A DNA stretch of 64,000 nucleotides, taken from IMG/VR virus record IMGVR_UViG_3300043399_000676. One strand, written 5' to 3'. The notes under the pieces were generated by a model. That model was not told the origin of the DNA and ran no database searches. It saw only the letters and a program-made list of their open reading frames with translations. How positions within the stretch are numbered: the stretch's first letter is position 1; each line of letters opens with the position of its first letter. Made by a program: the position numbers and the translations under genes. Shown here one piece after another: positions 24,401 to 56,811 of the stretch. This DNA comes from a virus. Taxonomy: Duplodnaviria; Heunggongvirae; Uroviricota; Caudoviricetes.

Positions 24401-27400
24401 AACTTTGTTATTTGCAGTTGATCCGACATAAATCCATTGGTTATCTTTAGATATTGCTAGACCAGTTCCCCAATCTGTATCTGACAAATTCGGTGCATCA
24501 ATTGTCTGCTGTAATCTAAGTTCCTTTAACCCATTCGAAGTTATTGCTTGATACACATATATTTTTCTATCTGTATCTAACGTACCATTTGGCTGAGAGA
24601 TCAACACCATATCATCACTATGGGCAATAGTTGTTCCAAATGTTTCTGAATTAACAATTTCTTCAGGAGATTCCAATTGACCAATCTTGTACAAGAACGC
24701 TTTACCTACGTTCGCTACTGTACCGTCTTTTGGTTCAGTTACAATGAATCCCAAGTTTGGAATGTATGCAACTGCTTCTCCAAATGTTGTATTGGAATCT
24801 TTTTCTAGCGAAAGTACTTCTTTGTAATTCAAAGTTTTTCTATAAACGGCCCACGCTCCTGAAACATCTTCATCAACCCAAACGTCAGTTGAATTAAATG
24901 CGGTGTTGGTTAACGGCAAACTTGCAATTTCACTTCCCTTGCTCACTCTATGTGGTTGGAACTTAAATGCAAGTCCAGCGCCCCTTACGTTAAGCATAGA
25001 GAATGCAAGTGACTTTGCAACTCTTACTGTGTTAACAGCAGGTGTAGACAATACTGTATAATACCCATCCATCTCAGGCGAGAAGTAGATTAATCCAAAT
25101 GGATCGTCTATTGCTAATCCATGCGGTGCATTAAATACGAGGTTCACTGTACCATCAAGATTATTATTACACTCAACTACGAGAACTCCATTATTACAAC
25201 TTGTACCATCATATGCACCCAAAGATATAGGTGAGTACACTCTCCATGTACCTTTGTAATCTGCTAACCAAACATAGTCATTATGGTACAACGTAGAAAT
25301 TGATTCTGTGTTTGATGTTAGGCTTGTCAAGTTGTATGCATTAACTTTAATATCATCAAAATTAACATAACCAGCATACGGAAGTTTTGAGCTTTCATAG
25401 TTGGTTGTGGGCAAGACATTTGCATTTGGAAGCTGTCTATCAAAATTATATACATCGTACAATGGAACTGACTGTTGAACATCCGTCAAGCTATTGTTAA
25501 AGATCATTCCAATGATATTTGGATTACTAATTAACTTTGACTGATCCAATTTAACATCAAAAAAGCTTGCGTTTAAAACTCCACCGTACTCTCCAGATTT
25601 AATTGCCCAGTTTTCAAAGATATCATAATCGATTGATCCCTGTTGTAAAGTGACTCCATTAAAGTTGTTAGCAGCATTAAATGTTCCCTTTGTTTTTATC
25701 ATGTTCTTGTAAACATTAACTTGGGAAACATCAGTCAGATTAGCGTCTGACAAATACTGCCTTGGTCGATAACCAATAGAAGAGAATCCTAGCAAGTTTG
25801 TATCATACTCTAAGTTTGTTCTATTGATATCATAGAAAATAGTACTTTCATATGCCGCTAAACTTGGATTAGGCAACAGGCCCTTTTGAACAGTATTATA
25901 ATCTGTTTTTACCCAATCAGTATCACTAAACGAACTGCTTGGCTGAACTACCTTTGTTGCGACCCAGTAATTGTTTTTGTACTTTACAATCACTCCCTTA
26001 GTGTAACCAATGTTTGGTTTCCATTCTTCAATGTTGTCTTGATTAAGAATGAATCCATAAGCATTTACACTACCATCCCAATCAGCAGTCTTAGAACCCT
26101 TAACCAATATTCGTTGCTGACGTAACCCAGTCGTTAAGTTGTAAATCCTATCATTGAATATCGTAGTGTTATTGAAAACTACCACGTGTTCCATATTAAA
26201 TAGGTTTGCCTTGAAGAAGCAAAGACTATCACCTTCGTTTAATGCCCTAACATTGAATTCTGTTCCATCTCGGTAAACACAAAGGTCTTTAAGTTCAATT
26301 GGAAGCAGATTCTGATTTAGAACAATATTCTCTTTCAATGTTAAAGGTTGTACGATTGAACTTTCTTTGTTGATTGTTATTACCTTCGCAGATGGATTGA
26401 CGTTTATAGTTGCGCCCTCTTCCCAACCAGATTGTGTCCAATACAATACTTCCAGAATCATTTGATTCCAACTTATTGCGTTACCGGATTCAATTTGATT
26501 AAATTGCATTCCGGCATTTTCTAAATAAACACCATATGATTTCAAGAACTCTGCAACTGCCTGAATTGTGAAGAATTCTGTCCCGTATGGAACAGCTACA
26601 ATTTCATCCGTGTACTCTTTGCTTACCTTTACTGTTCTGTTTCCTAGAGTCAAGATTTCAAAAATGCCATTGTTTTTAGGAACGGCAGTCTTAAAATAAG
26701 CTTTGTTTTGCGAATTACCCCAAATCTTATGTCCAGTCCTAGTCTTTTGTATTATGATTGAAGAGTATTCAATATTTTCAAATGGTTGATTATCATAAAG
26801 CAATACTGAATAACTAGCATCAGGAATCAATAATGATGTATTCTTAGTAGTTGGTGTACTCTTTTCAACATAAAACTTTAACAAGTCTTTGTCACTAAAA
26901 CCAGCCAGTCTATATGCAAGCCTAACATCCAAGTTGTCCTTGACATCAGTCAACATTTCGACCGCATTTATTCCAAACTGCTTTTCGTAATCAACGATCC
27001 AGTTGATGTAACTATGCTTAGGAATTCCTGACCCGTATATTTCCAAATCAGAAACACGATAATGTCTCCTGTTGTTAAGCAGAAACTGGTTAAATTCTTC
27101 GTTTAATCTGTATTTGTCAGTATCAATAAACAAGCCAAAGAACTTTGCAGGTTCAGTTAATACAAACAACTTCATCAAGTCAAACGGCCAAGTGCTACTC
27201 TTAATATAAGATGCCTCAGTTGGTCCAACATCACCTACTTCCCATTCATTTTTAAATATTACATCGTTGTAGTTACCTACTATTGTATAAAATGGAGAGA
27301 TTAGTTTCCCTTGACTGTCAACTGGAATAATTTTTAGTAAGTCAGGTCTTTTTCTAGTTTCTATAACTCTTGGCGATCCATTGTTCCAATCAATACCATT

Positions 27401-30400
27401 TGCTAAGTCATTCCACAAAACCAAGTTATCACTCGTGTATGGTGCAGATCCGTAGCGAGAATCCCACCATACTGGTTTGTTTGAAAAGCCTAGCATTTCC
27501 CACGGAGCAACGTGAGGTCTATCAGTGTCATACAACCACAAGTAAACTCCTCTCCAACCACCTTGTTCAATTGGAGTTTTTAGTAATCGATTTTCACTAT
27601 CAGTATAGTTCCAAGTAAATGGATTATCTTGATCGTAAAATCTAGTTTTAAAGTCTAATCTGTTTTGACCTACCCAGTTTAAGAATCCTAACGAGTACAT
27701 TTCATTTAGATCGTGCAAGGGAATAGCTGATCTAAATTGCCCAGGTTTAATGTCATCAGATGACATTGCAGGTTTGACTGGTACTTTAAGGTTATTGTAA
27801 ATTCTCTTTTCAAATTCAAATAATACCTTGTCTCGTATGTCTTGTAGTAAGCCATCGTTATACTCACCATATAACTTGGTTAAGCTACCGTCATGCCCTT
27901 TTAAGAAATATGTTGGTTGAAGGTAAGTGTCATCAAGATAAACAGTAGGTTCAAATGATTGGTACAATCCTAGTTTAGTTGGTGTGTTTGGAACAAAACT
28001 TCCATAGGTTTGGTTGTATTCCTTGATTGTGATCACATCACCAATCTGCAAGTCTACATTAACTGTAATAGAAGGACTGTTATCACTTATAACATAGTCC
28101 TTGTCCTTTACTAGCAGAGTTCTATATGTTAAACCGTCTTGGGTTCTGGTCAAGTAAACCAATACTCCATTGTAGTTTGCAACTCCAAAGTTATAAACTC
28201 TACTTAAGTTAAATTGACTAGTATCAGTAAAGTTATTAAAGTTGTAACTGTTTATAATATACGGAGTACCCAAAGGCACCATGTCACTCCAAAAGAATGC
28301 ACTATCGCTATCTTTTGTGGATGCAATCAGTTCAAGGATAGAATCAAGCATCTCATCAGGTGCATAGATGTTTCCAAAGTTAACTTTTGTAGTGGTATCA
28401 ACAATTAATGATTTGAATTTTACATACTCATTTGCATTGTATGTTAGCGCATTAAATATATTGTGGCTAGTGTTTCTTAAGAACATCGCCGAAAATACCA
28501 TAGAGGCACTATGCTGAACTATTTTAGTTCCGTAGTTAATTAGCTTCCCTTGATCTCTGTAGTTATTTGAACCTAGTGAACTTCCAGATATATAAGGAAA
28601 GTTTTTGAAAATTGTTTGATAGTGACCTCTTATCTCACCTATGCTAACAGAGTTTATATCTTCGTTGAATGGGTTATTACTTAAATTAAGAGGAATATCA
28701 AAATACGCCTGCTTACTAACCATTTCACTCAACAAAAGAACTTGCACTGGAGTGCCTGCACTTACAAGTTGTGAAGTCGTAATAAAGGTGTTATTGCCCT
28801 CTATCAAAACCGTAAATTGACTAGGTGTTAATCTTGCGTTATCAACGTAAACTTGCACAGGAGCCCAAGGAGTTTGAGTCACTGATTTTGCAGGAATGTC
28901 ACAAACAAAAGAGTTAGTAGTTGAAGTCGGGACAATGTTAAAGATTTGATATTGAAAAGAAGGTCCTGCTGCTGTTTCCCAGCCAAGCAACTTTTTATAA
29001 TCGTTTAAGGTTTGAAACTCTTGAACATATCCTTCATTAACATTCTTAGTTATTACCTGTCTATTTTGAACATAGGTAAACTTATCCGAATTAAAATTCG
29101 TATCAAAGCTAATGTCACCTAAGTTATAAACAGCACTGTATTTGATTGGGAACCCTAACACTGTATCATTCGCTCCAGTGCCTTCTCCATATGAGAATAA
29201 CTTTGTACCTAAGAAAGAACTACTTGGATATACTGTTTGATCAGATAAACTAACTCCGTTTATGTCGATAACATCAAACAAAGGTGGCTGATTTAGCGTA
29301 AGCTTTTCTTGCGAAGTTTCCCACTCAGTACCAGTAAAATAGAAAGCTTTTCCATACTGAGAAACCATGCTAGGAGTATTTGGATATCTAACTAGTATTT
29401 GTTCTCCTACTTGTATGGGCTCTTCGTTCGTCTCTGACAATGTTATGATTGGATTTATCTTCAATGTCCCAATCATAACACCAGTGTCTGCGTCACCTGA
29501 CGAGATATCAATTATAGTCCCTGAACTGTCCTTTAATTTTATAGAAGTTTCATCTATAATTTCAGCAATGTAATAGTTGATAGGTGATAATCCACCAAAC
29601 GGTGTTCCAGACAGGCTAAGCATTGCATCCACTACTAAATCAGCGGTATTGCTAACTGTGATGACATCCGACGCTTCTGTTTTTGTAACAGCAACCTTTA
29701 CTTCTTTTATCTTTTCGATGTTAACAGTATAGATTGTTTTTCTTCTGACACTATCCTCTTCATTTGCAAAGATTACTCTTGCACCATCGAATAGTGGAAC
29801 GGCTGCTAAACGAGTTGGATCTTCAGTTGCAGTACCTCTGTTAGTTTGATCACTTGTAAAAAAGAAAACATTGTTTTCAGAATCAACCTCAAAGCCCGCC
29901 ACTCTCAATGGACCACTGGATTCAAATGCGTTTCTTACAGAAAAATCTATAAAGTCAACTATGCCTTTGCTTTGAATGCCAGAGTCGAATAATTTTAGAT
30001 TTGGATAGAATTCAATAATTGGTCTTTTTGCTCTTGCAGTTTCAGAGTTTAAAACGCCAAGAATAGTTGGATCATTATTATATCGAGCGGTCGCAGCAAT
30101 TACGTCATAGTGAAACCAACGATTACTTCTTGACCATGGATTTGCGTCAATGCTTGAACGATTTATAGTAATATAATCCGGGGTGAGCGGGACTTCTTCC
30201 GTTAATTCATAATTCTGTGTATCAAAGGATAAGATGTCAAAAGGAGAATAGACTCCTTGACTAAACTTTTCTAGCACAACTAAAGATTTCACATCTATTA
30301 GTTTTATCCCAGTTCCTACTCCTTCAACGTAAAACTCTCTGTTTCTATATTGAGGGCTAAATGTATCACCAAAAAAGATTACTTTTAAACCATTTGTAAA

Positions 30401-32218
30401 TACTACCCCGTTTGGACTGGTGTAATATCTTTCACCTAGTATGTCTCTTTCAACATCAATAATAGTTTGGAATGTATCATCGACAAGTCTAATTTTCCCT
30501 ACTTTATCTGGGTTACTTGAGTCCTGATAATATAAAGTATCTAGTTCTGCTGCTAAGTAAGGTACGAGTGTAATAACACCGTTTGGTGATCGAATAAAGT
30601 TTCTGTTTATCCACTGTTTACCAAATAATGCTGTTATCTTTTGATCAGTAGGTAATGTTCCTGCTACGGTTAAGTAAATGACTGGATCTTCATCACCAAG
30701 TAAATTCACTTGGAATAAAGTATTATTCACTACAACGTTTGCGCCATCTTCATAAACACCAGTGTTGGTTGACGCAACCATGAACCCGCTTGATATAGGA
30801 AGATTTAATTTACTGCCACCAGGAACAGCAGAAATAGTAAAGCGTGTTTGATCTATTATGTCTTTGATAAAGTATTCGGTATCAGTTGATAGATCACCAA
30901 AAGAAATTCCGCTAAACGAAATCGACTCGTCTGGTTGGAATCCCACGGTTGAGTTACAAACAAGAACACCAGTTGTAAACGTAGAGAGCGTCATTGACCC
31001 AACATCAGGTGTAAGCGTAAGTTTAACACCACCTGGAGTTGCCGAAACAGTAAAAGAAGTATCGCTTAGAATTTCTTTTATGTAGTAAGTAGCCGAAGAA
31101 GAAATGCCTCCAAACTCTGTTCCACTAAATGTAATTTCTTCGTTTTCAACAAACCCAGCAGTTGATTGGCAGATGATCGAACTATCACCGTAAACTTCAA
31201 AAGCAGTATTGGTTAAGGTAGTGGTAGTTATTTCAGTTATATTTGCTGAGATTGGAGTATTGAAAACGGGATCATTTTCACCAAACTCCCCGTAACCAAA
31301 GAACTTACTTACATATGCTTTAACACCAGGTTCTGTTCCGTAGAACATCAATGACTTGCCGTTTAGTGCTAGCACACTGTCGATTCCGTTTACTTCACTT
31401 ATTCTTTTTCCGTTGATTTGTTCGAATGGCAACGAGGAAACAAGGTCTACAGTAAAAGTCCCCGGCACTTTAAATGCTTGCTGTGCGTCTCTGAAGGGAA
31501 CGTCAAAGTAAATAACACCGTTGGAAACTCCATTGTTTGAAACACCTAGAATTTCTCTAGTGTTTACGTTTACTTGTATAGGATCATAACCAGTGACCCC
31601 AGGTACACCTTGAATCCACAGTGGGTTTTCTTGGTTTACTCTAAATGAGTAAGTTGATCCCCTCAATAAAAATATAGTAGGATTTATACCTTCGATTTCG
31701 GAAGAATCACCTGTGATTCGATATCCCAAATTAGTATCAGTAATTGTAAAATCTATGTCACTGGATGCAAGTTCCGTTGTAACTTGAACTGCGCTAGGAC
31801 CGGATGGAAGCCAATAATACTGAGAATAGTTAATTAGCTTGTCCAAACAAACAAACGAATCCCATGAATAGAATTGATTTGAAAACAATTTCTCATGATT
31901 TTCTACGTTGCTGCCCTCGATCTTAACTGAATCTATAAACCCTGGATAGGTTAATAGATCCCTTGCAACGTCTGTATCTTTCTTCAAAAAGACAACGGCT
32001 GGATCAAGTTGGTAGTCATTTCTTGATTTATTAAACTCAATGACATACTTATCCGATGCGTTGACACCGTACCCAAATTTACTACCAATAAATCCTTCAA
32101 TTTTAGTAGTATTACCTGGTTGAACCAGTTGATCAAGCGTGGCGCTTAAAAACTGTTTGTTGTCTTTTGTTCTGAAGATTTCAGGAAGAAAATCAATAGT
32201 GCGAATTTTGGAAATCAT
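15494..32218 (-). CDS. Giant baseplate wedge/virion structural protein (5574 aa; gp7-like position) with beta-propeller repeats and CBM-like Trp modules
   Basis: Single 16.7-kb ORF directly after gp6-like; FG-GAP-like (FG..VA/FG..IS) and BNR-like (S.DG..W) repeats; W.....Y..G.IV.Y modules; YINEVKPYH motif. Confidence 0.7.
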   Translation of the reverse strand: MISKIRTIDFLPEIFRTKDNKQFLSATLDQLVQPGNTTKIEGFIGSKFGYGVNASDKYVIEFNKSRNDYQLDPAVVFLKKDTDVARDLLTYPGFIDSVKIEGSNVENHEKLFSNQFYSWDSFVCLDKLINYSQYYWLPSGPSAVQVTTELASSDIDFTITDTNLGYRITGDSSEIEGINPTIFLLRGSTYSFRVNQENPLWIQGVPGVTGYDPIQVNVNTREILGVSNNGVSNGVIYFDVPFRDAQQAFKVPGTFTVDLVSSLPFEQINGKRISEVNGIDSVLALNGKSLMFYGTEPGVKAYVSKFFGYGEFGENDPVFNTPISANITEITTTTLTNTAFEVYGDSSIICQSTAGFVENEEITFSGTEFGGISSSATYYIKEILSDTSFTVSATPGGVKLTLTPDVGSMTLSTFTTGVLVCNSTVGFQPDESISFSGISFGDLSTDTEYFIKDIIDQTRFTISAVPGGSKLNLPISSGFMVASTNTGVYEDGANVVVNNTLFQVNLLGDEDPVIYLTVAGTLPTDQKITALFGKQWINRNFIRSPNGVITLVPYLAAELDTLYYQDSSNPDKVGKIRLVDDTFQTIIDVERDILGERYYTSPNGVVFTNGLKVIFFGDTFSPQYRNREFYVEGVGTGIKLIDVKSLVVLEKFSQGVYSPFDILSFDTQNYELTEEVPLTPDYITINRSSIDANPWSRSNRWFHYDVIAATARYNNDPTILGVLNSETARAKRPIIEFYPNLKLFDSGIQSKGIVDFIDFSVRNAFESSGPLRVAGFEVDSENNVFFFTSDQTNRGTATEDPTRLAAVPLFDGARVIFANEEDSVRRKTIYTVNIEKIKEVKVAVTKTEASDVITVSNTADLVVDAMLSLSGTPFGGLSPINYYIAEIIDETSIKLKDSSGTIIDISSGDADTGVMIGTLKINPIITLSETNEEPIQVGEQILVRYPNTPSMVSQYGKAFYFTGTEWETSQEKLTLNQPPLFDVIDINGVSLSDQTVYPSSSFLGTKLFSYGEGTGANDTVLGFPIKYSAVYNLGDISFDTNFNSDKFTYVQNRQVITKNVNEGYVQEFQTLNDYKKLLGWETAAGPSFQYQIFNIVPTSTTNSFVCDIPAKSVTQTPWAPVQVYVDNARLTPSQFTVLIEGNNTFITTSQLVSAGTPVQVLLLSEMVSKQAYFDIPLNLSNNPFNEDINSVSIGEIRGHYQTIFKNFPYISGSSLGSNNYRDQGKLINYGTKIVQHSASMVFSAMFLRNTSHNIFNALTYNANEYVKFKSLIVDTTTKVNFGNIYAPDEMLDSILELIASTKDSDSAFFWSDMVPLGTPYIINSYNFNNFTDTSQFNLSRVYNFGVANYNGVLVYLTRTQDGLTYRTLLVKDKDYVISDNSPSITVNVDLQIGDVITIKEYNQTYGSFVPNTPTKLGLYQSFEPTVYLDDTYLQPTYFLKGHDGSLTKLYGEYNDGLLQDIRDKVLFEFEKRIYNNLKVPVKPAMSSDDIKPGQFRSAIPLHDLNEMYSLGFLNWVGQNRLDFKTRFYDQDNPFTWNYTDSENRLLKTPIEQGGWRGVYLWLYDTDRPHVAPWEMLGFSNKPVWWDSRYGSAPYTSDNLVLWNDLANGIDWNNGSPRVIETRKRPDLLKIIPVDSQGKLISPFYTIVGNYNDVIFKNEWEVGDVGPTEASYIKSSTWPFDLMKLFVLTEPAKFFGLFIDTDKYRLNEEFNQFLLNNRRHYRVSDLEIYGSGIPKHSYINWIVDYEKQFGINAVEMLTDVKDNLDVRLAYRLAGFSDKDLLKFYVEKSTPTTKNTSLLIPDASYSVLLYDNQPFENIEYSSIIIQKTRTGHKIWGNSQNKAYFKTAVPKNNGIFEILTLGNRTVKVSKEYTDEIVAVPYGTEFFTIQAVAEFLKSYGVYLENAGMQFNQIESGNAISWNQMILEVLYWTQSGWEEGATINVNPSAKVITINKESSIVQPLTLKENIVLNQNLLPIELKDLCVYRDGTEFNVRALNEGDSLCFFKANLFNMEHVVVFNNTTIFNDRIYNLTTGLRQQRILVKGSKTADWDGSVNAYGFILNQDNIEEWKPNIGYTKGVIVKYKNNYWVATKVVQPSSSFSDTDWVKTDYNTVQKGLLPNPSLAAYESTIFYDINRTNLEYDTNLLGFSSIGYRPRQYLSDANLTDVSQVNVYKNMIKTKGTFNAANNFNGVTLQQGSIDYDIFENWAIKSGEYGGVLNASFFDVKLDQSKLISNPNIIGMIFNNSLTDVQQSVPLYDVYNFDRQLPNANVLPTTNYESSKLPYAGYVNFDDIKVNAYNLTSLTSNTESISTLYHNDYVWLADYKGTWRVYSPISLGAYDGTSCNNGVLVVECNNNLDGTVNLVFNAPHGLAIDDPFGLIYFSPEMDGYYTVLSTPAVNTVRVAKSLAFSMLNVRGAGLAFKFQPHRVSKGSEIASLPLTNTAFNSTDVWVDEDVSGAWAVYRKTLNYKEVLSLEKDSNTTFGEAVAYIPNLGFIVTEPKDGTVANVGKAFLYKIGQLESPEEIVNSETFGTTIAHSDDMVLISQPNGTLDTDRKIYVYQAITSNGLKELRLQQTIDAPNLSDTDWGTGLAISKDNQWIYVGSTANNKVYAYAKNQDWAFSSTGLVMTSATLVGQGFVTVTGNQTATILPGTRLSFSNSGNETYLVSGVSFDGTNSRISFTSTLTQPHAIGTIYFAKHNYYLVDDDFIVPATSIPTDKFGYRISTNDDGSKIFVSAPETNESSVLIETGTVHIFDRIVQTFEIQDSNETSVDLGWTPNTVTRVLKNFEPLRQVDDYSVNASVIEGLELSAGDIITVHTNKFVRIQTINSSEINDGRPHIRFGKGLDTSYAGDELLAGAPFRISSDGKEGVVYRFTNGGKKYGLIKATSDFQTIGSPVDILINGFRLTIQGDLATVVNSINTSGINNVNAYALENKLVITLINESLNPVHNKLNVSVFDASVLTSLGFTLYQKTQEITSVHKLGSSQFGDNIKFNQYGSFIVSAPADTRFTSTTFDFFDDSKDNDTYFDNDFTKFVDGTVNAGSVYMYDYLQNVNESIDDPGQFAFAQSIVDFREHNGIYPNFGRSLDFSYYNVMVGVPDYENVSETNGKAFHFENALNKANWSVFRSPSEIVDVNKLQDIQIFSSNTKETYGLIDYIDPLQGKLLGAVQQNIDFITSTDPAGYNRDGEILNGNLVWDKHYVGRIWFDTTNVRFVDYHQNDTVYNSKYWGTIFPGSDIAVYTWIESTVKPEAYAGPGVPKNTTDFVTRYETNAANILSPRYYFWVRNTGLVFENMGKTLSDVIIAFYILNPQNSGIAYFAGYSSDKFGLYNCAEFIKDDSILHVGVANGSSDDTSYQKFSLIREGNADDFLSGLPRRIQQEPTQLYAKFIDSLAGMDSNGQTVPDHRLPESLKYGVLVRPRQGFFVDRLQALKNYLTYANSVLSQFPITETRNPQLIFKTEFSEQGGEAYLVVDTPSYWELTNWWASGYSDTTKPTVEVARFSDLYTLEAYEGLIAAVARNGNGLRETHIFTQGNWVRIGLEKGTIQFKSSLWDYSSTNEGFGDGYFGSETFNQIPVEETKNIIRSLNEEIFVNDLIIHRNKSLILMFEYIKSENNLVNSYSNWLNKTSFVDVTQTVSELESSPKYQLADQTLLSGYINEVKPYHVVIKDFQLKYKKLEPYFGDISDFDLPAYYDENIDRFVSPQLTYGTSFGDSFNINEDIWQSGIYQSWFNNYGLRIEGVNDFQVSTLASYVSITATELFVDNGYSFPESGIIKVENELIGYTSINRITGKLQGVTRGAFESEPAVHLPGTPIITNLPGVVVLNSGRLYSFTPKVFASIDTTRYPAPRREAKFRVEMKGDRVSNIVVVDSGDGYAVQPTLTIEPSLTFNFVADDVDSSKNVITIENHSFINGDLVKFSTNEDPIPGSELINDYYYYVRVVGINKISLYFYEFDASVDTHRIALTGLELGSLSLTAKVVPIVSSSPAKQIKPKIKFDRTSFTTNITDWVSGAFYSGAIDQTNALASTQEETASSSGFSSLSNNLLFLIGKFIQDDGLVWSVDLTRTTLSPKQIDGARVIGVPEEVSVTKTFASPTPGGTPMVVNIVYPFFSNGNVYNKFGAIVTDGGSGFPVGHQVQVDGSEFGGVSGVNDVTITVMKTYEDFDQNTETAIEDVVYSLNVTGAPLRESLRVFYVKHLNNYIGEWNANTTYYYGQIVSFEGQQYALSHLGDWELDTAYTLGDIVRYDGKYYTPSQPVPNNTLPTETDYWGEITEGVMGVLPGSSNIWMTAVQKNQNSFALYENPTLTTKVVTGDYETNQAYLFIPEIFNFDASRVMFNGSLYECIESNSDVEFDYDKWREVKSDDVSLNALDRITAFYGPTVNMPGKDLTQLINGLTYPYNIYYGNPFAPEEQYPLDTILKDKPFYGIEQVVRDVVWDGNRYVAILNSETTASTCISEDGINWSIQSISTQKFDVSSIFYSGETQNLIIPITRSSATSDFITCASTLYLELDKPIVFSGNVPFGGIIVGQTYYVKSIENETQFTISETLAGPTKDLTDGIGYLTFELVGQRKREYYVTVKNSSTPMLVSYDAVSWISQGPLSSFDEGEYGDQGYDSSALAIETTQLNSVDYFDGVYISVGYEIFKSINGVDWNPVFTFSNAVDLLNEFNAVKYIDVSFFEGFVAVGKGQTSVVTDGVYSIQNTDLIAVSNDQGNTWTRISPVTNLSLNAIANNSSVIVAVGEEGTIIYSTNGYNWLATSSGTTETLRDVIYQNGNFIAIGNNGKIISSVDGMTWANVTGIDTTNDLYAITWSGTEYLIGSSNGVVFVSADGLNWTERRILSTADESLYNVTGDTFTAGYSPEEMMSGVITDTISMYVRTKPSAGWDPETYEYLGFEMTSFVTKPNASNQISFRGVIQTPTSINIFKILDTTNRGPRLYLDIDYTINWVTKEITLTSPLDSSYSIMVELYELGNGPQLVRSTTDDTPLREDSGDSIIYIDQLFSETSQGATYVFVNGQRLTTSSFGLEKSSDNRTILRFNSLYDPETTYISYVIYSDANGVYSIPEAEVFTFTSTRNFVLTNFLDSNAISTLIVSVNGVRLSNTKYSLAGNTLVIDNSVPLVVGDKIGVITFSNLTGQYMTLDAATATFAEIATLESINSVSVVTTKTPHDLTTGDVVLLNGVSGATEINLTPLQVEVVDSQTVRLYQVYIDNTVNIPLLASGTSSDGVIWGVKSGETIKGILLNNTKLGAMIDPNRLWVTVDGNRINSDKVFFYDYRGTNYVGLLTGVASTEQILINAMTPFVVPNQQEYRLFIDRLNNTTAYNINVFNKTWLVEPLFITDNQVILNDVTRVTTSETYTTLAREDDDGDYDYLYYEKLGYRLYELNLPGITTEIKNMTLRNLTKGITLVQSTTTQRNDFYWTRENLAIEVHMLVPLEDENTVFAKVQAGDVIQVDIDFGNFILVNGEEIRFSIINPTQNVSEIRIGRKYTIQTLGNADFTSLGASSNTVGVTFTATANGDTLGQATGTVIALNTLSGLTRGVNGTGAQEFIPSFTTVFSLLEADEIADLSSLTKYPPQ

Positions 32219-48143: not shown

Positions 48144-48713
48144 ATGCCATCAGCGTCAAAAATTAAAGGATCAGGATTTGAAAGGGAAATTGCAAAGTAC
48201 CTTTCAGACCTTTACGGAGAAAGTTTCGTAAGGGCCGCACATTCAGGAGCTTTCGTTGGTGGCACTAACCAGACTCGCAAGGAGTCATTATCTGAATCAC
48301 AGATCAGAGGTTTTAAAGGCGACATTATCCCGGGTGACAGTTTCTCTCTGCTAAACGTAGAGTGTAAATTCTACGGAGATTTCGCATTCCATAGTTTGTT
48401 TACTGGAAAACACAGCCAGTTAGACAAATGGCTTGAACAACTTCTTGATGCTGCTGATGAAGGTGATCTATCTGTACTTTTCATGAAGTTCAATCGCCGC
48501 GGTCGTTATGTTGCAGTTCAAGCTGCATTGACTTGGGTGACTGACTTTTTCTTCTTCTACGGAAGCAAAAAGTACGGAGATTGGTATATTATGGAAATGG
48601 AAACATTCTTTAGGCTCAACAAAGACTTATTTAAGGCATATTCAGGCACCACGCCACAACTCAATACTGACTCAAATAATAGCTCAACTGATACCAAATC
48701 TAACCCAACATAA
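48144..48713 (+). CDS. Holliday junction resolvase-like PD-(D/E)xK nuclease (start 48144 preferred over 48129)
   Basis: SK.KGS.FERE.A..L...F.R...SGA..GG...GDI...VECK motif; ATAAGTA box 5 nt upstream of ATG 48144. Confidence 0.75.
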   Translation: MPSASKIKGSGFEREIAKYLSDLYGESFVRAAHSGAFVGGTNQTRKESLSESQIRGFKGDIIPGDSFSLLNVECKFYGDFAFHSLFTGKHSQLDKWLEQLLDAADEGDLSVLFMKFNRRGRYVAVQAALTWVTDFFFFYGSKKYGDWYIMEMETFFRLNKDLFKAYSGTTPQLNTDSNNSSTDTKSNPT

Positions 48714-48734
48714 AACTCAAAATGAGGGCCTTTG

Positions 48735-49175
48735 CAGTTCTAGTCCGATGAAGAAGTAGAGAACTGAGACAATTTGTTTGATCGGGGCTTGCTCGATCCT
48801 CCTGGAGATTGTACAGGTTGTGCTGTGCCGTCAGATTCTGGAGAAGGCGATGTTGCGAAGATAAAGCAACATTCGGAATACCGACAGGGCTCTCGTTATG
48901 AGTGCGAACCCTGAATGAGTCTATAGCTTACTCTGTTTATTGCGGCTATAGAACATGCGTCGATTTCAACTAGTAAACCGTATCACATAAAAACTGGTAT
49001 AGGTTGAAGCTTGAACTGCGGCCCCTATGAATACCTTACAGGTCGACCGGTGGCGGTGCATCAGCCAGATAATAGCTATTTGCATCGAGGGGATAAACAG
49101 CAAAGGAGGAAACGAAAGTATCTTAACCTTTGGTAGTGCTGAAACAGCACTACCATGGATTCCTCGAAAGTGAGT
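48735..49175 (+). ncRNA. Candidate large structured non-coding RNA of unknown class (~440 nt)
   Basis: ORF-free, GC-richer than its flanks, about ten stems visible by eye; G.U-compatible pairs and GAAA loops favour the plus strand. Boundaries approximate. Confidence 0.6.
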
Positions 49176-49236
49176 AAAAGAAAGACAGATTAAATATTAC
49201 TCCTAATCACTTAAAGAATTATTAAGAATAAAAAAG

Positions 49237-49296
49237 AATCCTGAATGATTGCGAACGTAGTGAGCAAGAATGAAGGATTATTGACCGAAGGTCAAT
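49237..49296 (+). other. Two adjacent hairpins with GNA triloops; the first has three tandem G.A/A.G mismatches
   Basis: AATCCT-GA-AT-GA-TTGC-GA-AC-[GTA]-GT-GA-GCAA-GA-AT-GA-AGGATT and ATTGACC-[GAA]-GGTCAAT. Confidence 0.7.
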
Positions 49297-49326
49297 TACC
49301 TACTAAGAGAAATGAATAGCTATGGC

Positions 49327-52300
49327 TTAAGCTCTTGCGTAGTCCAACGACTTCCCTTGTAGTCTTGTCGATCTCTCTAGCAGATCAATCACCTCATCTA
49401 ACTTACTTAAAATCTCACCTCCCATCTTTAAATTACTAGAATCATCAGGTCTTGCTTGTGCATTTACAGCGGAGATCAATTGATCTAGTTTTCCTGAAAG
49501 AGCGGTTACACCAGACATATCTCCTTGTGATAATTTTTGTTCATTTGCAATGTTCATAGGAGCAGGTGCTCTTGCCATTTGAACTCCAGCTGCTGTTGCT
49601 TGAGGAGGTTCAGTTGGTGGGGTCGGAGCAACTATTGGGGCAGTCGTAGGTGCTGTTGTCGGGGCAGATGCGACTTTAGGTTCAGGTACAGTTACAGGCT
49701 TGTTTATGTCAGCAGGTATTGAACCAAACTGCGCTCTGTATTCATCCGCAAACGCCTGTGCCGCAGTCGTTGGTTTTTTCCTAGAGTTTGCAGGTGAAGC
49801 AGCCGATGCAACTGCGGTTGATCCAGTTGGTTGTGCTGGAGAGGTTGGAGCAGAGATTGAGCCGTCTAACTGTGCGTGTATATGACCACCGGTTGCGTTT
49901 CTACTGGGGTTATTATACTCATCAATTGCCCCACTGAATCCCATTTGTTTAAGCGCAGCAACAATTTGCTTGCCTTCTTCAACTGTTGGAGGCTTTGTCA
50001 AGGTAAAATCGACTGCTTTACCTTGAGTATGCATACTGTTTGGAGTTTCTCTGATATGGAAACGATCATTAAATCCAGTGAATGCATGGAATCCAGGAAT
50101 AGAGGATTGAATCTGTTGGGCTAGCCCTATCATTCTGCTATCTAATGACGCATTAGGTGCCTGAACATCTCCTTGCTTTATTTTCAATCCGGCTGCTCTT
50201 AGCATTTCTTCGCTTGAAGTTATGCTTGAAGCAGCAGAAGCTACGGATGGTGTTGCAGGAGATGAACCTAGAAGAGCCAACGCATTATTTTTTCTGTTTG
50301 CAACTTCAGTCCCGGCTGATCGCTCGTACTTTTTATCTACTACGGCAGCGGCATCTTCTGCGGTTCTTGTTTGACGCAGAGAATCACCTGCTTGTTTCTC
50401 AGTGTTTTTTAGTTCCCAATCAACATATGCAAGTTGTTCTTCAAGGGTGGCAGATTTGACTTCTTTTCCGTACATCTGACGAAACCGTTCAAGTCTATCA
50501 TTTCTCCATTGAGCGATTCCTTGTGCATTTTCTTTTTTGTTAAATGCAGTTGTTGACAGATCCTTACCAGATTCTTGTTGGAGATTACCAACAATGCCCG
50601 CTGCTTGCTCTCTTGTCCATCCCTGTTTGATAAAGAACTCCATTGCTTTAGTAGCGTTTGGAGTTGCGCCTAACCCTGCTGCTGCATTCCCACCTTGTGT
50701 TGCAGCGGGTAACCCGCCTAGTTCCTTCATTCGGGATTGGGCAGCCGCAGTTTCTTTAGCAACACCTAAGTCTACAGCACCCTTCATTCCCATTGATGAA
50801 AGGAAGGTGTTGAATGCTTCGTTGTTTTGTTTAAACTTTAATGGGTCAATCTTTAAATTGGCAAACTCTTCGAATTTTTCGGTTATGGTCTTGCCGTCAA
50901 ACTTCTTAGAAAGATTATCTGATATTGTGTTTGCTAACGTTGATCCCTTAACAGCCTTTACGTTAGAGAAGGCTTCCATGCCTTCAGCAAATGCTTTGAA
51001 ACCTTCAGCCTTAGTTTTGAAGTCTTCAATGCTGCCCGTGATTTTTATCTCACTGAATTTCAAAAGTTTCTTAGCAAGATCATCAATGTTAATACCAGCA
51101 CCAAAAAAGTCGGCTATCTTGGAGAGCAAGGTACTTGAACCTGTTCCTGCTCCTTGATACGAACTTAATGCTTGATCGAATGCAGCCAATGCTTCTGCGT
51201 TTCTAGTAACTATCTCTTTGCTTACGTTGATAGAGTTAAATGTTTCTATTTTTTTCTTCAATGAGGCAAGATCAACGTTTAGGAAGTCAAAGTTATTTAA
51301 CCAAGCTCCTGCACCTGCACCTGCACCTTGGTAAGAGCTTAACGCTTGATCAAAAGTTTTTAGTATGTCTGCATTTACTATAATCTTTTCCTTACTATTA
51401 GGACTAAATTGTGCAAATTCATCAATAAAACTTTTTATTCTCTTTGCTAAAGCTTCAAAGTCTACATTCAACGAATCGAAGTTATTTAACCAAGTACCTA
51501 CTCCTGCTCCTGCTCCTTTGTATTCACCTATCGCAGAGTCAAACGCCTTTAAAATGTCAGCGTTCGATATTATTATGTCTTTCTTAGATGAGTCAATCTT
51601 TTGATTTTCAAATGATTTAATGAAGCTGTTTATTCTCTTTGCTAAAGCTTCAAAGTCTACATTCAACGAATCGAAATTTCCAAGCCAATTACTAATGCTT
51701 CCGCCCTTGTAGCCACTCATTGCATCGTTAAATGCCTTCAGAGCGTTTGCATTTTTTGTAATTTTATCAGTGTCACCTAGTTCAAGCTTGCTAAAATCAA
51801 TAAATCTATCCCAAGGTGTTTTGACTTCGAAGAACTTCGACAACCCTTCTGCGATTCCGATAGAAATAGTTGTACCACCTTTAAGTTTAGACATTGCTTC
51901 GGCAAATGCTCTTAATGCTTCAGCGTTAGTTTTTACCTTGGGTGCATTTTCTATTGGTAACTTAGAAAACTCTACAAATCTGTCCCATGGGGTCTTGACT
52001 TCAAAGAAGTTTGCTAATCCTTCTGCAAGAACACCCGAAATTGTTATCCCACTCTTAAGGGCACTCAATCCTTCAGCAAAAGCTCTTAATGCCTCTGCAT
52101 TGTTTTTCACCTTGGCAGAATCATCTATTGGTAACTTAGAAAACTCTACAAATCTGTCCCACGGAGTTTTAACGTCAAAAATAGAGAAAAGTTTTTCTGC
52201 TATTGCACCTGTAATTGAAGCACTTCCGTTACTTAGGGCAGCCATAGCTTCCCCGAATGCTAGTAATGCTTCTGCGTTTGTTTTTAGTTTAGGTCCGTCT

Positions 52301-55300
52301 ATTGGAAGATTTGAAAAATCTGCAATCTTCTCAAATGGTGTCTTTCCGCCAAAGAACCCAACTAGCCCGTCGACGATACTCGATGCTACATTAGCAAAGC
52401 TTGCTGCCACACCACCGGCAGCAAATACAGCTAATCCACCGCCTAATGCGGTAATTCCTAATCCAACATCAACTAGGTTGTCACCATCGATTCCTGAGAA
52501 TGCTGCCACTCCTTCGGCAAATGTTGGAAGTGCCTTGCCTATTAACCACATTGATGCAGCAGCTCCTGCAGAAATCAATGCGATTGCACCGGAGAAGATT
52601 GCGGCTCCTTTAAGTATTAATGGATTAGCGAACGCAGTAAGACCACCTGCAATTCCTTGTAAAATGCCTTGAATTGCTCCACCTGCTCCTGCTCCAATGC
52701 CTTGGATGAATCCTCCTAGTCCCTTTCCTAAGTCAGTTATCTTACTACCAAAGCTAGGTCCGGTGCGTTCTGAAAGAGAGGATAAATTATCCATTCCCTT
52801 TGCTGACGTAGTAGGTAGATTTCCTGCAATACCTTCTCCGGCTTTTGCTGCTCGCAAGTCTTCAAAGAATTTTTTACGAGCGGCTTTCCCAGCTTCAGTT
52901 GATGCCCTGTTCCTGTATCTGATACTGCCACGTGTTTCCTTGAATGTTTTCAAAAATGCAGCATTATCTGCATCTCTTGCTTGTCGTTTTATAGAATCTC
53001 CTGTCCAACGAGGAGTTCCAATTCCTGTTGCAGCAGTGCTGACTGCCTTAGTAGCATTACCTGCTGTTGCTGCGGTATTTTCGGATAAGGTTGATCCTAA
53101 CTTTCCAGCAGCATCACCTAGTGGTTTTAATAGCTTCTTACTAAGGACAGTGGTAAGAACACCTGCTATTGCTATGCCAGCATAAGACCAGTCTAGTAAC
53201 TTATTGGAATCTAATTCAATTCCAGTTTTATCTTTAATCCAATCTCTAAATGTATCTACTGCGGTACTAAATTTGTCAACACCACTATTAAATTGAGAAG
53301 CATTAGTTGCGTATCTTTCAATTGCTGCACCCAATTGAGTAAACACCATAGCTTGAAGCTTTGCTTGTGATTGTCGATCATTCTCAACTGCCCCAATGTA
53401 TTTTTCTACATTTGGATCTAATTTTTCACCTCTCTTTTGAGCCTCTCTTTGATCTTCTACAAATTTGGCTATTGTCTCAGCGTCATCTTTTCCAGTTTTT
53501 TCTTTGACTGTTCTTCTCAACCCCTCTTGGGCACGGGTAAAATCATTTGCCGCTGCAAATGTGTCACCAAACAGAGAAGTAAATATGCCGCTATCGATCT
53601 TAACTCCACCGGCGTATATTTTTTGTTGTTTGGTAAGTTGCTCACCTACCGTTAGCATCGCTTGTGCAGTATCCTGCTTCTCTACTGCCTGCAATCCTCC
53701 TTGACCCATCATTGTTTGATAGGCTGCTGAATTCTTGTCAACCGCTCCACCTGCGGCGTAGTATCTAGCAGCACCTGCGGCTAGGTTAGTAAGCCCCTTT
53801 GCTTGTAGCTGAGTAGCAATATCTTCCGCTTTTTTTAGTCTAGCTGCCTTTTCGAAATCACCGCTTGCTTCTGCTTCGACTTGTGCAGCTCGCAATTCGC
53901 TTATAGATTGAATTGCTTTTCGCGCTTCTTCTTGCTCTTTTCTAGTTGCACCTGTTATTGCTGCAAGTTTGTCAAGCTCCTCCATATAAGCATATGCGCC
54001 TTTTGTAAGGTCTGCTTGTGACTTGTTTGCTAACGTTCCGCGTTTAGCTTCAGCAGCCATGTACTGCACAATATGCTCATTTTGCTCTTCAGTTGTAATA
54101 CCTAAGCGTAATAAGCTTTTTCCTAATTCATTTGTGGGGCTCGTTATCGAACTAGCAACAGAAACAAACTTGTCAGCGCCATCCCCAACTGAGGCACCGA
54201 ACAATTTCATTTCTTTTGCGTTATTGGTTATTAACGAAGTGTATTGTTCAGTGGAAATACCTAGCTTTTGTTGATTTCTAAAGATATTCTCAAAACCGCC
54301 GCTAGTTGTTCCAGATACTTTTCCAAGCTCATTGAATGATTTGTATAAATCCTCGCCTTGTTTAGACGCAAGCTCGTTTAACTTTGCACCTGCTTTTGCC
54401 GTAGTACCAAATAATGCAAGCGCACCGCCTGCAAATCTTGCTGCTAGTCCTAATCCAGGAATGAGCATTAATGCGAAGCCGATTCCTTGTGCAGCACTTC
54501 CTAGTGTGTCTGCAAACTTGGTAGTGGCTTCGGCACTAACCATTGCACCTCGTCTACCCTCATAAATTGCAGAGGTGTAGCTCTTTATAGCAAGAACGCT
54601 TCCGCTTATTGCAGCCGTAAGCAGTTGTGTGGTTGCACTAAGGCCTATGTTCTGTTTATTTGTCTCTAAAAACTGCTCTGAAAGCTTTGATGATGCTTCT
54701 CCTAACGAATTAATTCTCTTTGATGCGTATTGGAATCCTTCTAGGTCTAAATTCTTTTGTCGTTCTATTCTTTCTAAAACTTTTTCTAGCTTGTCAGTAT
54801 CAACTTCCGCGCCTTTTCCGATCTGTTCGGCGCCCCTTGGTATTTTTAAACTTTGTCTTTCGGCTTTAGTTAAACCTAGTTCATTTAGCTTTGCTAGCTG
54901 GTCATTATCAAGTTTTACAGTAGATCTACCTTCAACTTTAGCCTTTTCTAAAACGTCGTTTAGGTCAATATCCTTTTCAAGAAGGCCTTTTCTTTGATTG
55001 GATCTAAGATCGTTTACAGGAGATGCAGCAGAGGTAGTAGCTCCTGTTATTTCTACTAACTTTGCCTGAAGATCACCAAATATATCAATCAACGCTTCTA
55101 CTTGATTGTTGTATTCCTTTTGAAGAGGTATTGTCTTCTCTTTGGTTAACTTTTCCTCCTCTTCACGAAGCGGAATGGTCTTTTCTTTTGTATGTTGATC
55201 TACTGCTTCAAGAGTTGTGTCGCCTTTGACTGTGGTTTTTAATTCAGGTAGTTTAAATAAAGCAAGTTGGTTTCTAAACAGGTCAAATGCGTTTTTTGTT

Positions 55301-55893
55301 TCTAAAATGGATGCGTTCAATCCACTAGTGTCGATGCTCTTTATTTTTGGTAACGCAAGACTGGCTATCTTTCCTTTAAACTCTTCAAGATCAGTTTGAA
55401 TTTTGCCAATTGATTCTGTTAACCCACTGGTATCGATTGATCCAATAGCAGGTAATTCAAACCCTTTTATTAAGTTATTGAAGTTGTCAATCGATGATTG
55501 TATATCACCTATTGAGCGATTAACTGAAGACGTATCAAACGTAATATTTTCTAGTTTACTTTTGAATGTGGTGGTAGAGGCAAGGATGTCATTAAAAAAT
55601 GGATCTAATCTTTTGGCATCAAGAGACGTAACAAACATGTCAAAGACAGTTTTGACATCAGTTAAGCTTTTGTTGAAGTTATTCAGAATAGCCGCAGTTC
55701 TACCTTGAGTAGAAGCTAGCATGCCGAGATTAACTGAAATTTGCCTAAAGTTGTTTTGAAGGTCGCCTTTGGAGCTGTTTAAGTTGTTGTTTATCTGTGA
55801 TATTTCACCTGATGTACCAAGTAATGTATCTCGCATGCCTATTGTAGCGGCACGAAACTCTTCCAACAGTGCATTTAGTTCTTGATCATCCAT
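49327..55893 (-). CDS. Tape-measure-like tail protein (2188 aa) with C-terminal phage-tail-lysozyme and Zn-peptidase (M15/LAS-like) domains
   Basis: Long helical Ala/Gly-rich protein with 58-65-aa internal repeats; GWT..QAAGIVGNL.QES...GIAQW...R lysozyme motif; S.H..GKAVDF...HIH peptidase motif. Confidence 0.8.
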   Translation of the reverse strand: MDDQELNALLEEFRAATIGMRDTLLGTSGEISQINNNLNSSKGDLQNNFRQISVNLGMLASTQGRTAAILNNFNKSLTDVKTVFDMFVTSLDAKRLDPFFNDILASTTTFKSKLENITFDTSSVNRSIGDIQSSIDNFNNLIKGFELPAIGSIDTSGLTESIGKIQTDLEEFKGKIASLALPKIKSIDTSGLNASILETKNAFDLFRNQLALFKLPELKTTVKGDTTLEAVDQHTKEKTIPLREEEEKLTKEKTIPLQKEYNNQVEALIDIFGDLQAKLVEITGATTSAASPVNDLRSNQRKGLLEKDIDLNDVLEKAKVEGRSTVKLDNDQLAKLNELGLTKAERQSLKIPRGAEQIGKGAEVDTDKLEKVLERIERQKNLDLEGFQYASKRINSLGEASSKLSEQFLETNKQNIGLSATTQLLTAAISGSVLAIKSYTSAIYEGRRGAMVSAEATTKFADTLGSAAQGIGFALMLIPGLGLAARFAGGALALFGTTAKAGAKLNELASKQGEDLYKSFNELGKVSGTTSGGFENIFRNQQKLGISTEQYTSLITNNAKEMKLFGASVGDGADKFVSVASSITSPTNELGKSLLRLGITTEEQNEHIVQYMAAEAKRGTLANKSQADLTKGAYAYMEELDKLAAITGATRKEQEEARKAIQSISELRAAQVEAEASGDFEKAARLKKAEDIATQLQAKGLTNLAAGAARYYAAGGAVDKNSAAYQTMMGQGGLQAVEKQDTAQAMLTVGEQLTKQQKIYAGGVKIDSGIFTSLFGDTFAAANDFTRAQEGLRRTVKEKTGKDDAETIAKFVEDQREAQKRGEKLDPNVEKYIGAVENDRQSQAKLQAMVFTQLGAAIERYATNASQFNSGVDKFSTAVDTFRDWIKDKTGIELDSNKLLDWSYAGIAIAGVLTTVLSKKLLKPLGDAAGKLGSTLSENTAATAGNATKAVSTAATGIGTPRWTGDSIKRQARDADNAAFLKTFKETRGSIRYRNRASTEAGKAARKKFFEDLRAAKAGEGIAGNLPTTSAKGMDNLSSLSERTGPSFGSKITDLGKGLGGFIQGIGAGAGGAIQGILQGIAGGLTAFANPLILKGAAIFSGAIALISAGAAASMWLIGKALPTFAEGVAAFSGIDGDNLVDVGLGITALGGGLAVFAAGGVAASFANVASSIVDGLVGFFGGKTPFEKIADFSNLPIDGPKLKTNAEALLAFGEAMAALSNGSASITGAIAEKLFSIFDVKTPWDRFVEFSKLPIDDSAKVKNNAEALRAFAEGLSALKSGITISGVLAEGLANFFEVKTPWDRFVEFSKLPIENAPKVKTNAEALRAFAEAMSKLKGGTTISIGIAEGLSKFFEVKTPWDRFIDFSKLELGDTDKITKNANALKAFNDAMSGYKGGSISNWLGNFDSLNVDFEALAKRINSFIKSFENQKIDSSKKDIIISNADILKAFDSAIGEYKGAGAGVGTWLNNFDSLNVDFEALAKRIKSFIDEFAQFSPNSKEKIIVNADILKTFDQALSSYQGAGAGAGAWLNNFDFLNVDLASLKKKIETFNSINVSKEIVTRNAEALAAFDQALSSYQGAGTGSSTLLSKIADFFGAGINIDDLAKKLLKFSEIKITGSIEDFKTKAEGFKAFAEGMEAFSNVKAVKGSTLANTISDNLSKKFDGKTITEKFEEFANLKIDPLKFKQNNEAFNTFLSSMGMKGAVDLGVAKETAAAQSRMKELGGLPAATQGGNAAAGLGATPNATKAMEFFIKQGWTREQAAGIVGNLQQESGKDLSTTAFNKKENAQGIAQWRNDRLERFRQMYGKEVKSATLEEQLAYVDWELKNTEKQAGDSLRQTRTAEDAAAVVDKKYERSAGTEVANRKNNALALLGSSPATPSVASAASSITSSEEMLRAAGLKIKQGDVQAPNASLDSRMIGLAQQIQSSIPGFHAFTGFNDRFHIRETPNSMHTQGKAVDFTLTKPPTVEEGKQIVAALKQMGFSGAIDEYNNPSRNATGGHIHAQLDGSISAPTSPAQPTGSTAVASAASPANSRKKPTTAAQAFADEYRAQFGSIPADINKPVTVPEPKVASAPTTAPTTAPIVAPTPPTEPPQATAAGVQMARAPAPMNIANEQKLSQGDMSGVTALSGKLDQLISAVNAQARPDDSSNLKMGGEILSKLDEVIDLLERSTRLQGKSLDYARA
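51430..52165. repeat. Internal repeats of the tape-measure gene (about 174-bp and 195-bp periods)
   Basis: tctattggtaacttagaaaactctacaaatctgtccca twice (~51950, ~52124); ttattctctttgctaaagcttcaaagtctacattcaacgaatcgaa twice (~51435, ~51630). Confidence 0.8.
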
Positions 55894-55919
55894 TTTTTAT
55901 TTTCTGCCTATTTTTAGCC

Positions 55920-55943
55920 TATAAATACGCTCAGTATATTTAT
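55920..55943. promoter_or_regulatory. Face-to-face late promoters: TATAAATA (+, 55920-55927) and ATAAATA (-, 55937-55943)
   Basis: In the 87-bp gap between the divergent tape-measure and gp26-like genes. Confidence 0.7.
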
Positions 55944-55980
55944 GACCGTTTCGTGCGGTAAAATCTAAACAGGAGCACTT

Positions 55981-56811
55981 ATGCTAGATAATAACCCATT
56001 AAAACAATATTTTCGTAGACCGGCCCTTTACGTTAAGCTTCCAAGTGAAGGAAAGTACTACAACGCAAATATTGTCGATATGCCTGAAAATGGCGAACTT
56101 CCAGTTTATCCAATGACTGCGATTGATGAGATAACAAGTAAAACACCTGACGCCCTTTATAACGGAATGGCAATTGTCGAGATCATCAAGAGTTGTATTC
56201 CTTGCATCAAAGATCCTTGGCAGATTTCAAGTATGGATTTGGACGCATTGCTAATTGCTATTCGAATGGCTACAAATGGCAACGAAATGGATTTAGAAAG
56301 CACTTGCCCTAGTTGTACAGAAGAAAACAAGTATGGCTTAAACCTATCGCTTATTTTAGGAAGTTTGAAGCCTGGTGACTATACAGCAGAATTAAAGGTT
56401 GATGGATTGTCTATCAAGTATAGACCATTGACATATAAAGAAGCAAATCAGGGAAATACGGCTCAGATTGAAATGCAGCGAGTTCTCAACAATCTGGCAA
56501 CTCTTCAGGACGAAGATCAACGTACTAAGGCAAGTAGTGATGGTTTAAAAAAGATTAGTAAAATTAGTATGGAAATCGTTGCGAATACAGTTGAATCTAT
56601 TACATTGCCGGATGGTGTAAAAGTTGAAGACAAGAAGTATATTCTTGAGTTCTTAACCAACTGTGACAAAAAGACCTATGCTGCGGTTAGGGACTTTAGC
56701 GTTAAGCTAAGAGAAAGTACAGAAATAAAACCTTTACATTTCAAGTGTGCAGACTGCGGGCATGAGTATGATCAACCATTCACGTTGAATATTTCTGATT
56801 TTTTCGAATGA
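55981..56811 (+). CDS. gp26: Baseplate hub assembly/tail chaperone, T4 gp26-like
   Basis: LPS.G..Y, V.PMTA.DE, D.DALLIAIR.A..G, CPSC and CADC pairs, C-terminal DFF; AGGAG RBS. Confidence 0.7.
   Translation: MLDNNPLKQYFRRPALYVKLPSEGKYYNANIVDMPENGELPVYPMTAIDEITSKTPDALYNGMAIVEIIKSCIPCIKDPWQISSMDLDALLIAIRMATNGNEMDLESTCPSCTEENKYGLNLSLILGSLKPGDYTAELKVDGLSIKYRPLTYKEANQGNTAQIEMQRVLNNLATLQDEDQRTKASSDGLKKISKISMEIVANTVESITLPDGVKVEDKKYILEFLTNCDKKTYAAVRDFSVKLRESTEIKPLHFKCADCGHEYDQPFTLNISDFFE

Follow-up and report, generated by a model that had tools for sequence, protein, structure and literature searches.

The question raised by this locus is what a phage keeps in a long stretch of DNA that encodes no protein. 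The window, a stretch of 64,000 nucleotides from the IMG/VR virus record IMGVR_UViG_3300043399_000676, is part of the genome of a T4-like jumbo phage as judged by its gene content, and the interval 48714-49326 contains no ORF of at least 60 aa, as claimed in a first-pass annotation of this DNA. The genes before the gap on the plus strand are, in this order, those of a late sigma factor, SbcD, SbcC and a RusA-like resolvase; beyond it lies a convergent tape-measure gene followed by the genes of the baseplate hub, portal, protease and major head protein. The tape-measure and hub genes (49327-56811) are inverted with respect to most relatives, in which the hub gene faces the element described here. 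Two giant ORFs, 85-13428 (4447 aa) and 15494-32218 (5574 aa), occupy the minus strand.

The upstream neighbour (48144-48713, plus strand) encodes a RusA-like/PD-(D/E)XK Holliday junction resolvase matching phrog_244 (E 2.8e-19) and PF24608 (E 3.4e-26); its ORF opens at 48129, and 48144 is the start that aligns with relatives. An identical resolvase is carried by a contig of 338,587 bases, and the nearest cultured relatives of the enzyme (36-51% identity) belong to SCTP-2, PA5oct-like phages and Phosso. The DNA encoding its C-terminal tail (48688-48700) holds a conserved motif (GACACCA.GTCA in relatives) directly before the RNA, which could be a peptide motif or a promoter or processing signal.

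The gap had been described as packed with stems, and all those named were located where the first-pass annotation had placed them, among them CAGTTCT (48735-48741) with AGAACTG (48760-48766), GATCGGG (48780-48786) with CTCGATC (48792-48798), and the crossing pairings CTGTTTAT (48933-48940) with ATAAACAG (49093-49100) and CCCCT (49022-49026) with AGGGG (49088-49092). Against dinucleotide shuffles, a check that the annotation had named, the whole gap folds better than expected on either strand (z -4.9 plus, -4.0 minus; 20 shuffles each), as does the core (z -2.9 and -3.0; 60 shuffles). Since folding energy is similar on both strands, energy alone cannot assign the strand; this is given by the frequent G-U pair types of the plus-strand structure, in agreement with the plus-strand RNA that had been proposed. 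The window shows no Rfam match at the gathering threshold or at E<=10, and neither Rfam nor ARAGORN returned a tmRNA, RNase P RNA or group I/II intron, the hallmarks of which had already been noted as absent; ARAGORN gave no tRNA either. Mappings by eye onto RNase P and onto a group I intron were both dropped; read in the same way, the nesting of P4/P7 is unlike that of the group I core.

Similarity to the resolvase was used to fetch 80 IMG/VR loci, all of which have a long ORF-free stretch after this gene where the contig reaches. By blastn most of them resemble the window directly. A profile was made from 62 of the sequences, and all 80 loci match it, a result that is circular for those 62. 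An independent pattern scan returned 120 loci, 112 of them true; the resolvase is directly upstream in all 69 of these that can be tested, the other 43 being too short on that side. The pattern is present in ~440 stored IMG/VR stretches, and no relative exceeds 56% identity to the window. When 67 sequences (71 selected, minus 4 with long insertions) are laid on a hand-built structure of 66 pairs, 95.9% of the positions are paired and 43 pairs have changed on both sides, while slid controls of the same structure drop to 31-41%. Covariation thus bears out the large, pseudoknotted and conserved plus-strand structured element that had been proposed; it is conserved and doubly pseudoknotted, and is likely to be an RNA.

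The conserved element spans about 48770-49171 (~400 bases, plus strand). It begins with a 5' module formed by P1 (48780-48798) and P2 (48799-48843; 99.5% of cells paired), followed by P3 (48850-48872), a hairpin of variable length recognized from covarying columns in the alignment. A core multibranch domain, P4-P8 (48879-49052), comprises P4 (48879-83/49048-52), P5 (48885-89/48909-13), P6 (about 48915-48956), P7 (48959-63/49043-47) and a variable P8 (48965-49008), with helices 97.9-100% paired and invariant ACTAC and TACAG linkers. Both crossing helices claimed by the first-pass annotation compensate among the 67 relatives: pseudoknot 1 (48933-48940 with 49093-49100) has 5 of 6 pairs changed on both sides, is 97.5% paired and gives the third-ranked MI pair, and pseudoknot 2 (49022-49026 with 49088-49092) has 4 of 4 such pairs and is 97.6% paired. 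The 3' part consists of the hairpins P9 (49054-49087; 9 of 10 pairs changed on both sides), P10 (49101-49132) and P11 (49131-49155), the last of which is nearly invariant in the window subfamily (98.7% paired). Two of the earlier proposals fared less well. The 5' stem at 48735-48766 is present but private to this phage, outside the conserved element and unaligned in relatives, which have the end of the resolvase gene there; the long GTC..ATTCTG/CGGAAT..GAC helix is absent from the covarying structure, its bases serving P2, P3 and P4 instead.

Two further features of the core were observed. Columns 49035 and 49052 form a perfect covarying pair, better than the P4 pair 48879-49052, and may reflect a third short knot or a base triple. 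The linker at 49013-49018, ACTAC in relatives and ACTGC here, repeats the 3' strand of P11; this repeat is invariant, and the linker could pair with the 5' strand of P11 in an alternative fold that frees the 3' strand.

The strongest covariation that does not reflect pairing is between the loop of P10, the second-last hairpin, and the tail that follows P11. The two words are direct copies, not complements: in the window CGAAAGT occurs in the P10 loop (49113-49119) and again at 49165-49171. Across 71 sequences the score of each loop against its own tail is 6.31, compared with 5.62 +/- 0.11 for shuffled pairings. Loop and tail agree at the first base of the word, which takes four states, in 102 of the 106 sequences that were parsed (20 of 126 were not), and the other 4 all have loop G/tail A, a combination that would be tolerated since an RNA G is allowed on a template T. 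On a tree of the 5' part this base changes 18 times in the loop and 20 times in the tail with only 20 joint changes, a count that may be inflated by recombination moving both words as a block, given their spacing of 50-60 nt. In an anchored table of all 126 sequences, used in place of an unanchored alignment of loops and tails that proved too noisy, the middle base is the same in 124 and the mismatches by state are G/A 12, A/G 5, T/G 5, C/T 3 and others 6, some of them arising from mis-registration. The word varies in length (6-10 nt), toggles between close relatives and takes dozens of unrelated states. The P10 loop word is the predicted anchor, and the complement of the copy on the minus (template) strand its predicted landing site.

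The functional extent of the element is longer on the 3' side, where it includes the copied word and two conserved hairpins at ~49237-49295 (plus strand). Between them lies an AT-rich spacer (49172-49236), unconserved in 53 downstream regions and a candidate unwinding stretch. Hairpin 1 (49237-49279, core 49253-49263) has tandem GA/GA and a GNA loop; its motif is found on the plus strand 46-94 nt past P11 in 49 of 53 relatives, with stems alternating between GC/GC and AC/GT, and in each of 5 genomes it is the sole copy with a flanking stem of at least 4 bp. Hairpin 2 (49281-49295) is a perfect stem with a C-GAA-G loop, and the loops at this place in relatives are C-GAA-G (32), C-GTA-G (6), C-GCA-G (2), GNNA (6) and others (1-2 each). 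GNA loops mark stable DNA hairpins, and folded as DNA the two give z -4.4. After the hairpins, many relatives share a conserved GATAAATGAA-like motif (49309-49319 in the window) that points at the convergent gene and looks like a late promoter; an antisense or primer transcript could start from it.

Queries with the PA5oct and SCTP-2 resolvases led to sister loci. Seven of them lack a profile (HMM) match yet possess the gap and, on the same strand, the hairpin motif that had been defined on the window subfamily; on reading, they proved to be a diverged form of the same element. About 27 more distant loci from these queries have no gap. The sister-form pattern is held by about 1500 stored stretches, and the hairpin motif occurs in 52 of 69 testable sister loci. 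In one subgroup P1-P2 is homologous to that of the first set, with 8 of 25 B1 members matching by blastn (best E 1.7e-14), and locus L576 of family B matches the window at E 1.6e-8. The B1 and B2 profiles match each other's 3' halves, and whole-profile searches cross weakly. A direct profile search of the window against B gave no match, so the window links to the larger element through B1.

In the second subgroup the place of P1-P2 is taken by the Polynucleobacter-1 module of Rfam (RF01718), which exceeds the cut-off (a covariance-model score of at least 37 bits) in 14 of 20 sources of one set and 1 of 14 of another. The window scores below it, and the module was not detected in L052 or L023 either. 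With a length of about 140 nt, RF01718 forms the 5' module in one sister subfamily, and the loci bearing it have in common the CGTTG...TAC.G..CAACCG core, the last hairpin, the copied word and the downstream hairpins; the window differs in having P1-P2 in that module's place. By score the window stands outside RF01718, but it belongs to a larger element that has RF01718 as one front end. The first-pass description of an unnamed large phage RNA holds in part: the window form has no Rfam match, but a first third of the element in the sister subfamily is modelled as RF01718, without the knots, the copied word or a function. In the sections of Weinberg et al. (2010; PMC2864571) available to us, Polynucleobacter-1 is listed with 16 representatives and no function. 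What the window contributes is a subfamily without Rfam match, its link to the other forms and a distinct word state.

Word copying is also seen among the 114 distinct loci of the sister form, where the words themselves are new. Among 97 of them the mean common word is 7.16 nt, against 4.97 +/- 0.12 nt in shuffled pairings, and among 93 the top three covarying column pairs are identity pairs with the same base in 0.98, 0.94 and 0.88 of cases. A same-strand complement, sought by a covariation scan and by eye in the window subfamily, was searched for directly in the sister form, and none of 23 distinct words of at least 7 nt had one within 450 nt, so that in cis the only partner left is the other strand of the DNA.

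These features recall the primer RNA of ColE1-type plasmids. Like the window element, RNA II of ColE1/pMB1 is a structured RNA of several hundred bases in which an internal run recurs close to the 3' end, and it too is followed, downstream on the same strand, by the hairpin motif. In ColE1 (NC_001371) the G runs are at 928-934 and 1176-1181 and the motif is at 1332, its only match there as against 0.07 expected; the likeness was seen by eye before the pattern was written, and the pattern was applied to the sister loci afterwards. The ColE1 hairpin motif also shares an exact match of 15 nt with locus L133. We take the stretch holding it to be ssiA (n'-pas) and the origin to lie at position 1196, and Masukata and Tomizawa are said to have found in 1990 that the G runs anchor the RNA II loop to the template. 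Accessible parts of PMC6317783, PMC3167613 and PMC5778457 set out the general scheme of RNA II R-loop, RNase H and ssiA. Two ColE1-type features are present in the phage element, a loop sequence repeated near the 3' end, which would pair with the template, and a hairpin motif downstream on the strand that would be displaced, recognized here by its sequence. The differences are considerable: the window element has two pseudoknots, carries a word of 6-10 nt that varies where ColE1 has a G run, resides in phage genomes of 330-360 kb, and has no known antisense RNA I or Rop and no RNase HI gene. For RNA II homology, model R1 gave no match on L242 and the B1 profile only E 0.47. By anatomy the element resembles RNA II, but with no homology to it is not a member of that family.

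We favour, with moderate confidence, the reading that the element serves an RNA-primed origin of replication as its primer, in the manner of ColE1 RNA II but without homology to it. From what was observed directly (the fold, the two knots, the covarying word copies, the downstream hairpins, the single copy per genome and the presence in bacterial islands) we infer the following course. The gap would yield a plus-strand RNA, probably as part of the gp55-gp47-gp46-resolvase transcript, and directly behind RNA polymerase the folded core would bring the word in the P10 loop to the copy site on the template strand. The growing RNA would stay hybridised as an R-loop; its 3' end would be trimmed and then extended as the leading-strand primer, while on the displaced plus strand the GNA hairpins would form and would load helicase/primase as ssiA does in ColE1. 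Because the word equals a downstream DNA site and has no partner on its own strand, pairing of the loop with the template strand is the simplest reading. Seven bases are too few to pick a site in 340 kb in trans, which argues for a co-transcriptional action in cis, as in ColE1, and hairpins that are read on the displaced strand fit a loading site.

Among the guesses of the first-pass annotation, the results favour a replication-primer or R-loop RNA, and the analogy with ROOL and GOLLD is weaker. Intermolecular loops in ROOL, GOLLD and OLE are complementary, not direct copies. The window element resembles these RNAs in being large, pseudoknotted and phage-associated, as described in available portions of PMC12286853, and differs in having no Rfam model match. 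A comparison with the phage T4 itself is also pertinent given the T4-like host genome. At the T4 R-loop origins oriF and oriG a transcript left hybridised over an AT-rich stretch primes synthesis, as would happen here; those origins, however, are not known to need more than a promoter and an unwinding element, in contrast to a folded RNA of 400 nt with an anchor word.

If correct, this reading bears on how replication begins in the T4-like jumbo phages of lakes and seas and offers a candidate job for a large phage RNA, a class mostly without assigned jobs. ColE1-style RNA priming would be no plasmid oddity, having arisen again on an unrelated and more complex RNA, and the orphan Polynucleobacter-1 motif would gain a function. 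Carriers are estimated at 400 plus 1500 stored IMG/VR stretches, and builders of orthogonal replicons would take an interest in a natural RNA whose short variable word anchors it to DNA. More tentatively, we suggest a widespread origin without protein initiator that jumbo phages have in common with small bacterial islands: a modular, ornate RNA would locate its own DNA template and invade it by means of a freely reprogrammable loop word of 6-10 bases, and in islands could replace a Rep protein; this broader proposal may well not hold in full.

Each of 6 large genomes examined has a single copy of the element, which in 5 of them lies 4.7-5.6 kb from the main gene-orientation divergence and in the sixth, G015, 18 kb off, although owing to shared synteny these positions amount to close to one observation. 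The GC-skew test gives the origin no support: with the gene-strand effect removed, none of 4 genomes shows a consistent switch in fourfold-site skew at the RNA, and the nearby raw skew minimum coincides with the gene-strand switch. T4-like recombination-dependent replication could blur a skew signal. RNase HI (PF00075) was detected in 0 of 5 genomes, and a 5'-3' exonuclease of the T4 RNase H/Pol I type (PF02739) in 5 of 5.

In GTDB, 6 of 240 pattern loci match the sister profiles, and none of 120 matches of the window-subfamily pattern is real. A loose P2 pattern gave 3 true loci of 120. In Methylococcales contigs and in G019 the cassette lies beside serine resolvases, tyrosine integrases, tRNA or chromosomal genes, and these island copies carry new matched words, one of them of 10 nt. 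The hairpin motif follows the cassette in L963; as a regular expression it is lacking in three Methylococcales island copies and in G015. DUF6641, a neighbour in L963, occurs in 3 of 301 genomes, and at two DUF6641 loci the adjoining slot is filled by a protein gene with no RNA. One island family has in this slot either the RNA (L967), a 192-aa protein or a 439-aa protein. The Atlas neighbours of the 192-aa protein include a REP_ORF2-G2P cluster (0.95; the family is on 11% of members), and the 439-aa protein has a weak DNA_pol_A lead (0.80); neither matched Pfam or PHROGs, nor did the one of them searched against PDB match there. These leads suggest a slot shared by the RNA and replication-like proteins in related islands. 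The 439-aa protein (L970, 2-1318) shows polymerase-A-like motifs by eye and falls near unnamed Atlas clusters (0.96-0.97). In addition, a Kiloniellaceae contig (L724, 1423-1620) holds a GC-rich partial copy of the core beside a terminase-like gene, apparently without the usual 3' domain.

The word copies could instead be twin sites within one RNA, serving a dimeric protein, a pseudo-symmetric fold or a ROOL/GOLLD-like oligomer in an RNA-only or RNA-protein architecture that involves no DNA pairing. In the sister form a TGAC motif is repeated upstream of both words and some arm and tail bases pair, many words contain GNRA-like loops, and a few mismatches are unfit for template pairing, namely loop C/tail T in two lineages (L128/L142 and L214/L229) and some loop A/tail G. 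We nevertheless consider such an architecture unlikely, as the toggling of the word among close relatives and its many unrelated states are hard to reconcile with a protein site, and the strand-specific GNA hairpins and the island slot would be left unexplained.

It is quite unlikely that the RNA anchors to its own DNA only to open a site for cutting or strand invasion by the resolvase or a GIY-YIG nuclease, at the start of packaging or of recombination-dependent replication and with no priming. The resolvase is in the fetched flank of only 4 of 114 distinct sister loci (many flanks are short), the RNA is upstream of it in L518, L520 and L521, and the island copies have no nuclease of these kinds beside them. 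In favour of this reading are the upstream place of the resolvase in all 69 testable loci of the window subfamily, the adjoining gp46 and gp47 genes and the GIY-YIG-like gene that, by eye, precedes many sister loci. The resolvase is a usual neighbour and no needed partner. An RNA-guided resolvase was dropped as the main idea since the RNA travels without this enzyme.

Covariation cannot separate such motifs from single-stranded DNA, as pointed out in the part of Weinberg (2017; PMC5737381) open to us, and the downstream hairpins do look DNA-like, so that the whole element might act as folded single-stranded DNA, as a single-strand origin or a recombination signal. The core, with its many G-U pairs, GNRA-type loops and two pseudoknots, is unlike the GNA-triloop hairpins behind it and makes this very unlikely. 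A cis-regulatory 3' element, or a terminator or antisense device, would suit the position between convergent genes and the possibly cis-regulatory nature of Polynucleobacter-1 mentioned in passages of Weinberg et al. (2010; PMC2864571), but is extremely improbable, as the neighbours change freely, no terminator-like site was found and the copied word would be unaccounted for.

Searches of plasmids for the element gave no match; in cultured phages, blastn with the gap and two sister RNAs gave no real match, and neither model R1 nor either sister profile detected a homolog in PA5oct, SCTP-2 or Phosso. Beyond the 2010 Polynucleobacter-1 table entry, the full RNA and the word copy are undescribed in the open full-text literature searched, although supplements of PMC10690425 may hold fragments. 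In both PA5oct and Phosso the resolvase has a long gene-poor gap next to it. That of PA5oct (L081, 1978-3492; 1.5 kb) is annotated as tiny hypothetical genes and contains a P5-like string and hairpins on the minus strand with no profile match; none of the four ncRNAs given for this phage in the accessible part of PMC7318152 lies in it. In Phosso and a relative (L083, 2486-3500; L512, 1562-2500) a 1-kb gap between RNase HI and the resolvase holds a different folded region (z -3.0), unmatched to the window's family, together with GNA hairpins, and is possibly an analogous origin in a cultured phage.
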